A stretch of 63,373 bases of DNA from a virus (IMGVR_UViG_3300028854_000008:1-63373); one strand, 5' to 3'. Shown: positions 17,355 to 63,373, numbered from the stretch's first letter. A program made the numbers and translations. The notes: generated from the letters alone by a model not told the origin.

Positions 17355-17471
17355 TATATTAGTTGCAGTGTTATCAGCACTCACCAATTCAGAGTACGCC
17401 AGCTATAGATTTGTACATATGAATTTGCTATAGAGAAGATAATAAAGAAAAATTACTTAAATTACTGAAAT

Positions 17472-36216: not shown

Positions 36217-36786
36217 ATGAAACTAAATGAAATAATTTTAAACGAGCATGTAGTAAATTTATATTCAAGCGAAGATAAAAATAAATATGTGTCTAAAGTT
36301 TGGGATATGCTACAATCAAGTTACGAAAAATCAGGAGGATTCAAATCAGCTTCATCCCCAGAAGAACTTATTAAAAAATCAGGCTTATGGAAATTAGTTA
36401 CTCGTAATGGAAATATAACTGCTCTTAGAATATATAAAAATCAATTTGGAAAAAAAGCAATTGCGGCTGGAACAAATGGAACTACTCAAGGCAAAATAGA
36501 TTACATGTTTATCAATAAAGAAGATATATCATTAGGAAGAGCATGGGCAGAAGTTAGTGGAGCACCAGAACATATAATGAAACGATCTGGAGCAATTCCA
36601 ATTCCAGCCAAATTTGCAGAATTTTTAACAAAGAAGCTAATATTAAAAATTAGTGATGATGGCTTTCATTATATTAGATTAATAAAAGGTGAGCCATTTG
36701 AAAAAATTATTTACGGAACTGCTTCATTGACTGATTCTGAAAAGAAAGAAGCTGAAAAATTGGATATAGATTTCAAATTAATTTGA
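36217..36786 (+). CDS. Hypothetical late protein
   Basis: ATAAATA at 36205; MKLNEIILNE start typical of this phage's late genes. Confidence 0.65.
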   Translation: MKLNEIILNEHVVNLYSSEDKNKYVSKVWDMLQSSYEKSGGFKSASSPEELIKKSGLWKLVTRNGNITALRIYKNQFGKKAIAAGTNGTTQGKIDYMFINKEDISLGRAWAEVSGAPEHIMKRSGAIPIPAKFAEFLTKKLILKISDDGFHYIRLIKGEPFEKIIYGTASLTDSEKKEAEKLDIDFKLI

Positions 36787-59791: not shown

Positions 59792-59870
59792 ATGATTAAG
59801 TGGGAGATAAATATTTTAAAATAATTTTGCATTTATTAAAAATTTACAAATTCTCAGGATAAATAAATAT

Positions 59871-60044
59871 ATGAAGAGCATGATTACAACTGATACAATT
59901 TCTAAAAATATTTTACGAGAAGTGAAATATGATGCTACAGGAAATGTTATTACTAATGGAGAATTTATTACAGTGAAAGACGGCGGGCAAATATTAAATC
60001 AAAATAAATTTGCAGCCGCTGATAAATTCGGAGTATATTTGTAA
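59871..60044 (+). CDS. Small late protein, 57 aa (not in ORF track)
   Basis: ATAAATA at 59859; followed by a terminator. Confidence 0.5.
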   Translation: MKSMITTDTISKNILREVKYDATGNVITNGEFITVKDGGQILNQNKFAAADKFGVYL

Positions 60045-60067
60045 ACGCCAGGATTCAAAAAGATTTA

Positions 60068-60095
60068 AAAGATCCTGGCGAAAGTCAGGATCTTT
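60068..60095 (+). terminator. Intrinsic terminator hairpin
   Basis: AAAGATCCTGGC-GAAA-GTCAGGATCTTT. Confidence 0.75.
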
Positions 60096-60204
60096 CATTT
60101 GCAGTAAAGAATAGTTATCCGTTCCGCTTCACGTTAACCGAGCACTCTTTATAAAGAGAATGGAAAATATCAAAGATAACTATAATGTAGTAAAAATGTT
60201 TTAT

Positions 60205-60279
60205 GGGGCAGTAGCTCAGAGGGAGAGCGCTGCGTTAGCATCGCAGAGGTCGAGATTTCAAAATTCTCCTGCTCCACCA
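60205..60279 (+). tRNA. tRNA-Ala, anticodon AGC
   Basis: G3:U70; stem CTGCG/CGCAG, loop TT-AGC-AT; encoded CCA. Confidence 0.9.
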
Positions 60280-60353
60280 TAAAGTTTTTGCTTGGGGTGG
60301 TTACTTATTTGACAGATTTATATAAACGAATTAAAGATTGGAATGAAAAATAT

Positions 60354-60425
60354 GGGGAATAAGTGTTGATAGGAGCACGATAGATTCGCAATTTATAAGG
60401 GTGAGGGCAGTTCTCACATTCTCCA
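60354..60425 (+). tRNA. tRNA-Ala, anticodon CGC, non-canonical T-loop (GGCAGTT)
   Basis: GGGGAAT/ATTCTCC with G3:U70; loop TT-CGC-AA; no encoded CCA. Confidence 0.7.
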
Positions 60426-60426
60426 C

Positions 60427-60487
60427 AAGTTATTGAAAATAAAGCACTTATTTTTTACTTGACAAATGATCTAGAATTTAGTATTAT
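60427..60487 (+). promoter_or_regulatory. Conserved upstream element plus sigma70-like promoter for tRNA-Ala(TGC)
   Basis: AAGTTATTGAAAATAAAGCACTTA; TTGACA(60459)-N17-TATTAT. Confidence 0.75.
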
Positions 60488-60506
60488 TAAAGAGTAGCAA
60501 GAATAT

Positions 60507-60599
60507 GGGCTATGGGGCTGCTAGGGTGGCCACTGGTTTTGCACTCCAGAATCATCGAGAAATCGATACAGCGGGATTCAAATTCCCGATAGTCCACCA
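60507..60599 (+). tRNA. tRNA-Ala, anticodon TGC, with long class II variable arm
   Basis: GGGCTAT/ATAGTCC with G3:U70; loop TT-TGC-AC; V-arm ATCGA-GAAA-TCGAT; CCA. Confidence 0.85.
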
Positions 60600-60610
60600 A
60601 AAAATTTAGG

Positions 60611-60639
60611 TTGACAAACAAAGTAAAGTTTGATAGTAT
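60611..60639 (+). promoter_or_regulatory. sigma70-like promoter driving the large ncRNA and downstream tRNAs
   Basis: TTGACA-N17-TAGTAT, followed by AAAGAGTAGCAAGAA as at 60489. Confidence 0.75.
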
Positions 60640-60645
60640 AAAAGA

Positions 60646-61056
60646 GTAGCAAGAAATTGGTGCAACACAGCACGAAGTAGCACTCCAAATGCAGCGAATG
60701 AGAATTCGTTCAACAGATGGACAGACACATAATGTTTACTTGTAAAAGTGTTCTGACCTTAACGTGCCTGCGATAGTGAGTTGAATGGTGAAATGCCAGA
60801 AGAAAGTTCACCAGCCAATGAAGTTTAAAAATCGCTTTAGTAGCGATCTGATAGTAAATCAGTTCAGGAAGTATTTGACAATTGAAGAGAATATTGCAGA
60901 GCAACAGTGCTCTGTTTGAATATGAAAGTTACACCCGCCTACGTGGCAGTCCTAACTGAGACAGCATCACGACTTCAGGTGGCACGATGGTTGTAACGGG
61001 GCAAGCTTTCAGACTAATTAACAATTAGCGGCTGCGTACTGCCCGTAAAGTACGCA
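60646..61056 (+). ncRNA. Putative large (~400 nt) structured non-coding RNA
   Basis: Own promoter, no credible ORF, GC-richer than flanks, at least 10 helices including nested long-range stems; ends before an AAAGTTT spacer. Confidence 0.75.
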
Positions 61057-61076
61057 TAAAGTTTTGAAGTAAATAT

Positions 61077-61162
61077 GCCGTAATGGTGGAACGGAATACA
61101 CTTTGGACTTAAAATCCAACGCTCTTATGAGATTGAGGGTTCAAATCCCTCTTACGGCACCA
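61077..61162 (+). tRNA. tRNA-Leu(TAA)
   Basis: TTGGA-CTTAAAA-TCCAA, long V-arm, CCA. Confidence 0.92.
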
Positions 61163-61173
61163 AAAAGTTTAGT

Positions 61174-61291
61174 AGATCAATAGCTCAATTGGTTAGAGCA
61201 ACGAGATTAACAGATCAAGTCGTAAAGCCACAAGCCTAAGATACTTGAAGTCACTCGTCGGTTGAAGGTTCGAGTCCTTCTTGATTTACTA
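61174..61291 (+). tRNA. tRNA body with a 41-nt insertion in the anticodon loop (anticodon ambiguous, possibly TAA)
   Basis: AGATCAA/TTGATTT acceptor, canonical D- and T-arms, stem ACGAG/CTCGT enclosing 48 nt. Confidence 0.75.
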
Positions 61292-61300
61292 GAAAAGTTT

Positions 61301-61419
61301 AACTCTGAGTCGCAAGACTATCGAAGTGACTAGGAAACTAGCTGGCATAACGAAATATTATGTTGGACCTTGAGAGTGACCACAGATGAATCTCAGTGAA
61401 AGCTAGAGATTTCAGAGTT
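61301..61419 (+). ncRNA. Putative ~120-nt multi-hairpin RNA
   Basis: Closing stem AACTCTGA/TCAGAGTT; hairpins AGTC-GCAA-GACT, CTAG-GAAA-CTAG, GCATAA/TTATGT, AATCTC/GAGATT; flanked by AAAGTTT spacers. Confidence 0.65.
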
Positions 61420-61429
61420 ATAAAGTTTT

Positions 61430-61506
61430 GCCGCGTTCGTATAACGGATTATTATGCTCCGCCTTTAACGGAATCGATATGGGTTCAAATCCCATGCGCG
61501 GCACCA
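61430..61506 (+). tRNA. tRNA-Lys(TTT), atypical C33
   Basis: TCCG/CGGA stem, loop CC-TTT-AA, A73, CCA. Confidence 0.75.
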
Positions 61507-61520
61507 AAGTTTAGATGTAT

Positions 61521-61597
61521 GCGTTCGTCGTATAGCGGCTTATTATACTTGTCTCTTAAACAAGCTGACGTGAGTTCAAATCTCACCGAACGCACCA
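61521..61597 (+). tRNA. tRNA-Lys(CTT)
   Basis: CTTGT-CTCTTAA-ACAAG, CCA. Confidence 0.92.
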
Positions 61598-61613
61598 AAA
61601 GTTTTATAGTTAT

Positions 61614-61730
61614 GAGATTGTAGCTCAATTGGTAGAGCAACGCCCTTTTTTCGGGATGCTTCTTTGAGAGAGCATTCGATGGATGCTTTCAAAAAGGCGC
61701 AGGTTGTGGGTTCGATTCCCACCAGTCTCA
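61614..61730 (+). tRNA. tRNA-Lys(TTT)-like body with a 44-nt insertion in the anticodon loop
   Basis: GAGATTG/CAGTCTC acceptor; CGCC-CTTTT...AA-GGCG enclosing 51 nt. Confidence 0.78.
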
Positions 61731-61785
61731 CAAAGATTTGAAATTAAAACCATCTTCGCATAAATAAAGATGGAGGATCAATTAA

Positions 61786-62400
61786 ATGCCATTAGTAAAT
61801 TGTCCAAAATGTAATACTGAATTTGAGAATAAAGGAAAATGGGGAACCAAAAAATTTTGTAGTAGAAAATGTGCCAATTCAAAAGATCGGCCACAAGAGT
61901 TAAGAGATAGAGTTTCTAAAAAATTAAAAGGAAGAATTGGAAAAAGTATTTTTCTTTCTCCAGAGAAACTCATAAGTCGTAATCTTAAACTTAGAAAAAC
62001 TTGGGATTTAAAATATGAGAATATTCCATTTGAAGAACTTTCTTGGGATTTACAAAGATTGCGAGTAATAAAAGAACAAAATAATTCTTGCGGAAAATGT
62101 GAAATTACTGAATGGTTTGAAAATCCAATAACTTTAGAAGTTGATCATATAGATGGAAACCGAAAGAATAATTGTAGAGAAAATTTAATTGCTATTTGTC
62201 CAAATTGTCATAGTATTACTACAACATGGCGCGGAAGAAATAGAAAAACTGTGGATTATAAAACTGATGAAGAAATTTTAAATGTTATTTTACAAACTGA
62301 AAATATTCATCAAGCATTAAAATTTCTAAATATGGCATGTCGAGGAGCCAATTATAAAAGATTACAACAGTTAATGGAAAAAAATAATATCTCTTACTAA
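61786..62400 (+). CDS. HNH endonuclease embedded in the tRNA cluster
   Basis: N-terminal CPKC...FCSRKC; CGKC...LEVDHIDGNRKNNCRENLIAICPNCH. Confidence 0.9.
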   Translation: MPLVNCPKCNTEFENKGKWGTKKFCSRKCANSKDRPQELRDRVSKKLKGRIGKSIFLSPEKLISRNLKLRKTWDLKYENIPFEELSWDLQRLRVIKEQNNSCGKCEITEWFENPITLEVDHIDGNRKNNCRENLIAICPNCHSITTTWRGRNRKTVDYKTDEEILNVILQTENIHQALKFLNMACRGANYKRLQQLMEKNNISY

Positions 62401-62406
62401 ATTTAT

Positions 62407-62511
62407 AGCCGTATAGCTCAATTGGTTCAGAGCATTCCCCTTATTTAGGGCCTGTGCATCAGACCTTAAATAAGGGAAAGGTTGATGGTTCGATCCCATC
62501 TACGGCTACCA
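62407..62511 (+). tRNA. tRNA-Ile-like body (anticodon TAT or AAT) with a 27-nt insertion in the anticodon loop
   Basis: AGCCGTA/TACGGCT acceptor, TTCCC/GGGAA stem enclosing 34 nt, CCA. Confidence 0.8.
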
Positions 62512-62526
62512 CAAAGTTTAAATGTT

Positions 62527-62586
62527 GGCTTGTAGCATAATTGGCAATGTGTGACCCTGTTAAGGTCAAAGATGATGGTCCAGCCA
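62527..62586 (+). pseudogene. Degenerate tRNA-Asn(GTT) lacking most of the T-arm
   Basis: TGACC-CTGTTAA-GGTCA intact; T-loop and 3' T-stem missing. Confidence 0.65.
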
Positions 62587-62597
62587 AAATTTAAAGT

Positions 62598-62716
62598 TTC
62601 GCTGTAGGGAAAATATACCCCGCTGCATGAGGCAGAAAGATATTGAGGGGCTGGTCAACGGCTATAGACGCCCAGTGAGTAAATATTTGATGGTGCAAAT
62701 CCATCCGGCGATACCA
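62598..62716 (+). ncRNA. tRNA-like RNA with a ~55-nt variable-region insertion; identity unclear
   Basis: TCGCTG/CGGCGA acceptor, GGG/CCC D-stem, CTGC/GCAG arm, T-arm GATGG-TGCAAAT-CCATC, A-CCA. Confidence 0.6.
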
Positions 62717-62723
62717 ATTTTAT

Positions 62724-62858
62724 GGGATGGTAGCTCAGTAGAAGAGCAATGGCTATGAGGGGTAGTCTAGCGACGGTTAGATGAGACTCAAGTGCAAAAG
62801 TCATACGTCGAGAAGTCTGAAGGCCAAGGACATTGTGCAAATCCCTCTCATCCCATCA
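62724..62858 (+). ncRNA. tRNA-like RNA with a ~60-nt insertion in the anticodon arm and a degenerate T-stem
   Basis: GGGATGG/TCATCCC acceptor, canonical D-arm, TGGCT/GGCCA stem enclosing a long insert. Confidence 0.55.
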
Positions 62859-62930
62859 ATTTTAAAGAAAAGATGTTGGGTTCAATGGTCCGACTTCAAA
62901 CTAACGTTAAGTCAAGTTTGAATAGTTTAA

Positions 62931-63004
62931 GCGGGGATAGTTTAAATAGTAGAATATCTGAGTTTCCGCTCAGAAGATGGGTTGCAAGTACCCTAACCGC
63001 TCCA
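62931..63004 (+). tRNA. Degenerate tRNA-Gly(TCC)
   Basis: GCG...CGC-T-CCA Gly identity; two acceptor mismatches; 6-nt anticodon loop. Confidence 0.6.
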
Positions 63005-63015
63005 ATTTTATATAT

Positions 63016-63100
63016 GCGGGAGAAGCCTACTTGGTATGGCACTGGTCTTCCAAACCAGAGATGAAAATCGCTGCGAGTTCAAATCTCGTCTCCCGCTCCA
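63016..63100 (+). tRNA. tRNA-Gly(TCC) with extended variable arm
   Basis: CTGGT-CTTCCAA-ACCAG, U73, V-region GAT-GAAA-ATC hairpin, CCA. Confidence 0.88.
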
Positions 63101-63135
63101 TATTTATACATATGGAATAAAGGAAGAAAATTAAA

Positions 63136-63309
63136 ATGAAATATTGGTGTAAAAATTGTGAACATCTTCTGCCATTGAAGAACAATGAAAGAACAGAAAA
63201 TTTCAAAGAATGGTGGATAGAAAATCGAGAACAATTCAGAGAACTGCATCTCAATGGAGAGTGTGAAATAAAAACAACTCAGATACAGAAGGTGAATTTA
63301 TATGCATAA
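63136..63309 (+). CDS. Small hypothetical protein, 57 aa (not in ORF track)
   Basis: SD AAGGA; MKYWCKNC. Confidence 0.5.
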   Translation: MKYWCKNCEHLLPLKNNERTENFKEWWIENREQFRELHLNGECEIKTTQIQKVNLYA

Positions 63310-63373
63310 ACTTTTGTTTTTCTTAGCATTTGTTATAATTGTATTTGTGGTGCATATGTTGAAGTGTAAATAA

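Follow-up and report, generated by a model that had tools for sequence, protein, structure and literature searches.

A possible modular, untranslated leader of a tRNA operon in the tRNA cluster of a large peat phage

What does a phage carry in a 411-nt stretch that stands between two of its tRNA genes, has a promoter of its own and contains no recognizable gene? The question is raised by positions 60646-61056 of a 63,373-nt window (the whole stretch of DNA analysed here), which covers the first half of a phage record of 127 kb in IMG/VR. Since this record is approximately 49% complete according to CheckV, the phage genome should reach about 250 kb. The stretch lies between tRNA-Ala(UGC) (60507-60599) and tRNA-Leu(UAA) (61077-61162), on the same strand as both, and is present in many peat metagenome runs. 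A sequence-only reading had interpreted it as an ornate RNA of about 400 nt, either a short divergent member of a class such as GOLLD or ROOL or the first of a new large RNA class. The analysis presented here suggests that it is probably transcribed and non-coding, and that it is probably a leader cut into two or three pieces and not a giant RNA of the GOLLD/ROOL type. The explanation that we prefer, with about even confidence, is that of a lineage-specific, modular leader, untranslated and placed 5' in a tRNA operon, which would have arisen by tandem duplication and would be processed in the manner of the tRNAs themselves.

The tRNA array spans 60.2 to 85.2 kb of a genome whose G+C content is 33%. 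ARAGORN identifies 29 tRNAs in it, further insert-bearing tRNAs being detected only by Rfam or by ARAGORN in its intron mode, and between the tRNA genes lie small ORFs and a gene for an HNH endonuclease (61786-62400). The tRNA-Ala(UGC) gene is 93 nt long, with a G3:U70 pair, a long GAAA-capped variable arm and its own consensus promoter at 60459-60487; it is called by ARAGORN and missed by the Rfam tRNA model even at E <= 10. The tRNAs at 61174-61290, 61614-61731 and 62407-62511 (RF00005, 52-58 bits) have an anticodon loop lengthened by an insert of 27-42 nt, well below the size of a group I intron. In the two tRNA-Ile(UAU) genes, the intron mode of ARAGORN places the insert at position 37, which is the canonical 37/38 intron site. 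The product of the HNH gene, located between tRNA genes, shows weak similarities with the Pfam HNH_3 and HNH profiles, both below the curated cut-offs, and its nearest relatives are found in unrelated phage contigs (35-48% identity), as is typical of a mobile homing endonuclease. The features of the stretch itself are collected in Table 1.

Table 1. Features located in and around the 411-nt stretch (positions in the window)
Feature	Position	Strand	Remarks
Promoter P2	60611-60639	+	TTGACA 60611-60616, 17-nt spacer, TAGTAT 60634-60639, extended -10 TG; 10/12 consensus positions
Shared initial transcribed sequence AAAGAGTAGCAAGAA	60641-60655	+	identical 15-mer behind the tRNA-Ala(UGC) promoter, 60489-60503
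Block A	60658-60817	+	about 160 nt, 41% G+C; GNRA-capped hairpin 60693-60710; 7-bp hairpin 60786-60813; decayed copy of the P1 -35 region
Internal tRNA-type trailer ATGAAGTTTAAAAA	60818-60831	+	putative endonuclease site, from the distribution of AAGTTTAAA in the cluster
Block B	60831-60931	+	36% G+C; hairpins 60831-60847, 60848-60862 and 60896-60915; 15-mer TATTTGACAATTGAA 60872-60886; AAAGTTA 60925-60931
Block C	60932-61056	+	125 nt, 50% G+C; hairpin CTAATT/AATTAG 61014-61028; 8-bp terminal hairpin 61033-61056
Trailer TAAAGTTTTG...	61057-61076	+	same type as the tRNA 3' trailers; followed by tRNA-Leu(UAA) 61077-61162
Open frame, 44 aa	60785-60919	+	longest plus-strand ORF
Open frame, 64 aa	60710-60904	-	longest minus-strand ORF

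The near-consensus promoter announced by the sequence-only reading is real. P2 is among the two best promoter sites within 59800-63373 and belongs to a set of approximately 45 near-consensus promoters of the genome (TTGACA-17-TAnnnT). Most of these are located directly before genes, which makes it very likely that P2 is in use. P2 is a paralogue of P1 (60459-60508), with 76% identity over 50 nt (E = 3.4e-4), and the leader said to be common to the stretch and the tRNA-Ala promoter is indeed present as an identical 15-mer. Variants of this 15-mer (AAGAGTAG...) occur behind the protein-gene promoters at 36783 and 69057. It is therefore a feature of the promoter family and not a mark of RNA genes, and its interpretation as an RNA-gene signature was rejected. 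Two further and diverged copies of the P1 -35 region are found inside the stretch, at 60726-60761 (p = 0.022) and 60872-60892 (p = 0.046), these similarities being only marginally significant. Together with P1 and P2 they compose four promoter-like repeats spaced 127-152 nt apart. No plus-strand terminator was found between 60646 and 61077.

Elsewhere in the genome, five near-identical promoter-plus-gene-start cassettes (50247, 100980, 111441, 116422 and 126196) include TTGACAAATAAATTTATTTAGGATATTCT followed by an ATG 5-7 nt past the -10 element, and a similar but more diverged copy is located at 86349. The set of five represents a multi-copy gene family whose mRNAs are apparently leaderless. 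An ATG no more than about 10 nt from the -10 element is also found at many other promoters of the phage.

The stretch had been described as devoid of any credible ORF, and this description holds. Its longest frames (44 and 64 aa, Table 1) have no Pfam match and are absent from a collection of 15 billion proteins. Gene calls on three independent contigs place nothing between a 57-aa ORF and the HNH gene. Moreover, no translated similarity was observed between the 411 nt and either the relatives of the phage or the rest of its genome.

Similarity to known RNAs was searched with all 4,227 Rfam models, at the gathering threshold on the whole window, at E <= 10 on 3.6 kb, and at E <= 10 with the laxest filters on 477 nt. 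At none of these three stringencies does a family match the stretch, the sole signal being a chance match to a Trp leader on the minus strand (E = 9.2). Recognizable members of GOLLD (RF01998, at the gathering threshold or at E <= 10) and ROOL (RF03087) are thus excluded, as are those of tmRNA, RNase P RNA, group I/II introns, 6S RNA, known ribozymes and riboswitches. The same applies to tRNAs, including expanded ones: there is no RF00005 match at E <= 10, and ARAGORN reports no tRNA on the plus strand of the stretch with introns allowed and a threshold of 80%. Only an acceptor-like 7-bp hairpin followed by GCCA is present. A tmRNA reading was also rejected, a separate permuted tmRNA of the two-piece type being encoded outside the window at genome positions 120996-121201 (L127:17996-18201; RF04321, 73 bits, E = 4e-12). 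ARAGORN also calls a permuted tmRNA there, at 120964-121345, and AAAGTTT occurs immediately before it (120960). A further region of the tRNA cluster outside the window, 64499-65466 (968 nt, 41% G+C), has no plus-strand ATG-initiated ORF of at least 60 aa and no Rfam match at the gathering threshold; it is a larger structured-RNA candidate than 60646-61056.

GOLLD and ROOL are structured RNAs without ORFs that are often found beside tRNA genes in phages and prophages (PMC5737381). The stretch resembles them in being phage-borne, adjacent to tRNAs and free of ORFs. However, it has neither a model match nor homologues nor a conserved multistem architecture, only local hairpins being predicted with confidence, and it is internally punctuated. 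It is also shorter, 411 nt against an average of 581 nt for ROOL (PMC5737381) and a still greater length for GOLLD. The proposed membership in these classes is thus not supported, even at E <= 10 on the 477-nt segment. Nor is a new large RNA class established, in view of the ordinary folding energy, the internal punctuation, the decayed promoters and the lack of a second, different sequence in the collections searched. Nothing places the stretch in an RNA family or makes it the founder of one. As a single orphan sequence, it has no bearing on what GOLLD and ROOL do.

Whether the stretch is structured beyond chance depends on the measure used. Its composition is moderately beyond expectation: with 43% G+C it ranks in the top 3% of the genome windows outside the cluster, and the segment 60921-61056 in the top 0.65%, its 50% matching the tRNAs of the phage. 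The number of hairpins is partly so. Five perfect hairpins of at least 6 bp are present, compared with 1.08 in dinucleotide shuffles (P = 0.003), and five or more are reached by 8.7% of ordinary 411-nt windows of the genome. Folding energy is not: the minimum free energy of the whole region corresponds to z = -1.26, with 7 of 100 shuffles folding as well, and the minus strand behaves like the plus strand (z = -1.30). The high G+C content and the density of hairpins agree as well with a fold under selection as with a modular leader.

The local hairpins listed in the sequence-only reading do appear at the positions given for them. In the ensemble they pair with probabilities of 0.8-0.98, apart from CTGAT/ATCAG (60848-60862) with 0.4. 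The nested domain opened by TGAAAG/CTTTCA fares less well. The segments proposed to pair are indeed complementary, but the pairing probability is about 0.46 for the outer helix and at most 0.01 for the three inner ones; folded by itself, the domain gives z = -0.53. With such inner helices and an ordinary overall folding energy, the term "ornate" does not apply.

The stretch is better described as a succession of three blocks (Table 1). In block A, the two hairpins are predicted with probabilities of 0.84 (60693-60710) and 0.91 (60786-60813, TGGTGAA/TTCACCA), and the latter is followed by a single-stranded GCCA and then by ATGAAGTTTAAAAA. The 7-bp helix (U1:A72, G2:C71, G3:C70, then G-CCA) may resemble the acceptor end of a tRNA-Gln. 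Just after the shared leader, block A also shows a weak colinear similarity with tRNA-Ala(UGC) (p = 0.02), its GNRA-capped hairpin falling at the position of the long variable arm of this tRNA. In block B, the segment 60829-60870 folds with z = -2.5, and AAAGTTA at 60925 marks a weak internal boundary, this heptamer being common in the genome (29 copies). The terminal hairpin of block C has a probability of 0.93-1.0, while the energy of block C folded separately does not differ from that of shuffles (z = +0.41). None of the blocks has significant similarity to the 35 tRNAs of the phage (p = 0.28-0.59). A decayed tRNA or ORF remnant was considered and rejected for lack of significant tRNA similarity and of translated similarity.

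The tRNA-type 3' end at 60786-60831 (7-bp hairpin, GCCA and AAGTTTAAA trailer) is part of a punctuation that extends over the whole cluster. The sequence AAGTTTAAA has eight copies in 127 kb, seven of them in the tRNA cluster and four of these seven directly behind a tRNA 3' end. In a looser form, CCA-N0-4-AAGTTT, the motif occurs 22 times in the genome; the cluster holds 17 of these copies, including that of block A, and most of the 17 are at tRNA 3' ends. The spacer (A/T)AAAGTTT(A/T) is located directly behind 21 of 32 tRNAs, often as ...CCA followed by AAAGTTTAAATG, and non-tRNA units end in the same way. AAAGTTT as such is enriched in the cluster (28 of the 62 plus-strand copies in 20% of the genome), and the spacer said to follow the stretch is found at 61058. 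The sequence TAAAGTTTT stands behind the terminal 8-bp hairpin of the stretch, behind tRNA-Ala(AGC) and behind a 119-nt non-tRNA unit (61301-61419). This distribution suggests that the AAAGTTT punctuation is probably a processing signal. In the predicted ensemble, the trailers are little more accessible than the average position (unpaired 0.52-0.65 vs 0.43), and the cleavage model therefore rests on the distribution of the motif and not on folding. Internal tRNA-type punctuation, decayed promoter copies and steps in composition argue for a composite of short modules and not one ornate fold. The 119-nt unit is itself closed by an 8-bp stem and flanked by AAAGTTT on both sides; it folds with z = -1.99 (p = 0.037) and has neither an Rfam match nor a counterpart in the sister lineages.

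The distribution of the stretch among phages is narrow. No deposited phage matches it (blastn against the 50,697 records of INPHARED, T4 included). Sister lineages were located in IMG/VR and JGI metagenomes through the NAMPT gene, 2.4 kb upstream. Two of them are near: G001 (85% NAMPT protein identity, 125 kb, tRNA cluster included) and a lineage composed of G002, L004, L038 and L039 (82%, with a 292-kb contig). A fourth lineage, L123, is 81% identical at the nucleotide level, its contig ending before the tRNA cluster, and all other NAMPT relatives are at 46% identity or below. The tRNAs of the cluster are recognizable across lineages at 78-88% identity. No counterpart of the 411 nt was detected by blastn, nhmmer or tblastx in G001, G002 or L038/L039, and exact 18-21 nt anchors from three parts of the stretch gave no or only chance matches in IMG/VR. 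The neighbouring proteins of 80 and 57 aa, used as queries, returned only the phage itself and one 77% relative on a 660-nt contig. Further copies retrieved through exact proteins are all 100% identical, and the clusters of the flanking proteins are nearly clonal. As the copies are identical and no homologue was detected, they offer no compensatory base changes that could support a new class.

At the same position in the sister lineages, behind tRNA-Ala(UGC) and a promoter that can be aligned with P2 (L038 10743-10767 with window 60593-60617), the content is different: stacked TTGACA promoters, small ORFs and hairpin-plus-AAAGTTT modules. Stacked promoters and short hairpin-plus-AAAGTTT modules of other sequence count for a modular leader in the source phage. 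The only piece of the stretch common to the sister lineages is the 15-mer TATTTGACAATTGAA, which contains the palindrome CAATTG and is the only non-tRNA sequence of the region kept in three lineages. G001 has two copies of it and L038 one, all within the tRNA cluster, under the general form T(A/G)TTTGACAATTGAA (window 60872-60886; L003:16322-16336 and 17457-17471; L038:10924-10938, with G for A at the second position). Its 73 matches in IMG/VR approximate the number estimated for chance, only those of G001 being relevant. The 15-mer resembles the P1 -35 region, with no usable -10 element at 16-18 nt in three of the four copies. A conserved hairpin presenting it was rejected, the four copies folding differently.

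The sister phages also carry a conserved non-coding RNA that is absent from the source phage (L003:17695-17960, L038:11040-11345). In it, a GGTATGC/GCATAC stem encloses a tRNA-like element, behind which about 150 nt are conserved up to a 3' hairpin that exhibits three compensatory changes (GGACGG/CCGTCC vs GTGAGG/CCTCAC) around an invariant 7-nt loop, TGAAACC. This RNA matches no Rfam family apart from tRNA.

A promoter, the absence of ORFs, an elevated G+C content and a tRNA-type spacer at its boundary make a non-coding RNA product of the stretch likely. According to the preferred reading, a tRNA-operon leader, the sigma-70 RNA polymerase of the host would start from P2 at about 60646, meet no terminator through 61056 and run into tRNA-Leu(UAA) and the tRNAs that follow. 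Judging from the distribution of the motif, cleavage of the precursor would then take place in the A/U-rich trailers of AAAGUUU type that recur throughout the cluster. In bacteria, RNase E and RNase P process polycistronic tRNA and rRNA precursors, whose units are separated by short, single-stranded A/U-rich spacers directly behind CCA; endonucleases remove the leader. The RNase E of enterobacteria prefers RN↓WUU. An RNase E-type endonuclease of the host is the likely cutter because AAAG↓UUU fits this preference, although an enterobacterial preference may not be that of the host. The 5' end of tRNA-Leu would be freed by RNase P. Candidate sites are located at 60818-60831, 60925-60931 (weaker) and 61057-61065, and trailers at these sites should divide the leader into three pieces, about 160-175, 95-105 and 125 nt long. 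The outer two would each end in a 7-8-bp hairpin expected to slow 3' exonucleases. The leader may have originated when the neighbouring promoter(-tRNA-Ala) cassette was duplicated in tandem and the copies then decayed. This reading is based on the promoter match, the lack of ORFs, the G+C content, the hairpins, the trailers and the promoter paralogy, from which we infer transcription, cleavage sites and the stability of the pieces.

Other explanations account for part of these observations. One or more blocks could be functional small RNAs in their own right, for example a mimic of a tRNA acceptor end in block A or a stable structured RNA in block C. The hairpin, GCCA and trailer at 60786-60831 agree with such a role, as does the 3' end of the phage's own tRNA-Gln(CUG) (...CAGCCA), and block C has a tRNA-like G+C content of 50%. 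The cluster contains other non-tRNA units as well as expanded tRNAs, and T4 RNAC and RNAD provide a precedent for stable non-tRNA RNAs from phage tRNA regions (PMC3014915, PMC9697503). However, not even the nearest lineages conserve the stretch, it has no T-arm and no tRNA model match, and no block resembles the 35 tRNAs; we regard this possibility as unlikely. The block A mimic could be a decoy or a substrate for tRNA-directed enzymes or host defence nucleases. In an extended form, the whole leader would consist of fast-evolving tRNA-end mimics and structured RNAs, set free by the punctuation that also releases the tRNAs, with block A and the G+C-rich block C acting as decoys or sponges for tRNA-directed defence nucleases or for tRNA-processing or -modifying enzymes. 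The turnover of an arms race would then explain why unrelated modules occupy the same site in the sister phages; this extended form appears quite improbable.

The role of the stretch might instead reside in the DNA, as a stack of live and decayed promoters and operators, TATTTGACAATTGAA included, that sets the transcription of the tRNA array, the RNA having no role. This is unlikely. The four promoter-like repeats, the tandem TTGACA promoters at the same place in L038 and G001, and the -35-like nature of the sole clade-conserved element with its CAATTG palindrome do speak for it. However, the missing -10 element behind most copies of the 15-mer does not, and promoter DNA of this genome is A+T-rich (30% G+C at 60280-60506) whereas blocks A and C reach 41-50%; the tRNA-type trailers are also left unexplained. 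A single ornate RNA of about 410 nt, a new class functionally akin to GOLLD or ROOL, would agree with the promoter, the lack of ORFs, the many hairpins beside phage tRNAs, the raised G+C content and a hairpin count above that of shuffles. It is nevertheless improbable given the absence of any Rfam match, a folding energy reproduced on the opposite strand, the very low pairing probability of the nested inner helices, the folding of block C at the level of shuffles, and the tRNA-type punctuation and promoter remnants inside the stretch. Furthermore, it is absent from lineages in which the tRNAs persist. Finally, either open frame could encode a small protein. Both frames exist, but neither has a Shine-Dalgarno sequence of the GGAGG type used elsewhere by the phage, no gene caller predicts them on any contig, and they lack Pfam matches as well as translated similarity in the relatives or in the genome itself, so that this explanation is very improbable.

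If the leader reading is retained, the closest parallels are found in other phage tRNA clusters. T4 RNAC and RNAD are non-tRNA RNAs that are co-transcribed with the tRNAs and whose function is still unknown (PMC3014915, PMC9697503). Like them, the stretch is located within a phage tRNA cluster, on the same strand and with no terminator before tRNA-Leu, from which co-transcription may be expected, and on the modular reading its blocks have a similar size (about 95-175 nt). Unlike them, it has its own sigma-70 promoter and heads an operon, and it shares no sequence similarity with them (blastn against the 50,697 phage records). Expression and stability were shown for the T4 RNAs, whereas the stretch is known here from its sequence. 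RNAX of T5-like phages is conserved across a phage family, whereas the stretch is confined to one near-clonal phage population and has no blastn match in deposited T5-like phages. As in bacterial tRNA and rRNA precursors, short A/U-rich spacers 3' of CCA would set the units apart, and endonucleases would remove the leader. However, the leaders of bacterial tRNA operons are usually short, while this one comprises about 410 nt with several stable hairpins and the remnants of duplicated promoters. Its pieces are most likely either by-products of processing or small stable RNAs of the RNAC/RNAD sort, without a catalytic or cage-forming role.

If these pieces are stable, they would be additions to the small and unexplained group of non-tRNA RNAs that derive from phage tRNA clusters, among which RNAC and RNAD of T4 have been without an assigned role for decades. 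They would also imply a rapid replacement of such RNAs among jumbo phages that are close relatives. The most clear-cut result concerns the cluster as a whole: a punctuation rule, in which CCA or a hairpin is followed by AAAGTTT(A/T), predicts processing sites for the entire 25-kb tRNA array.
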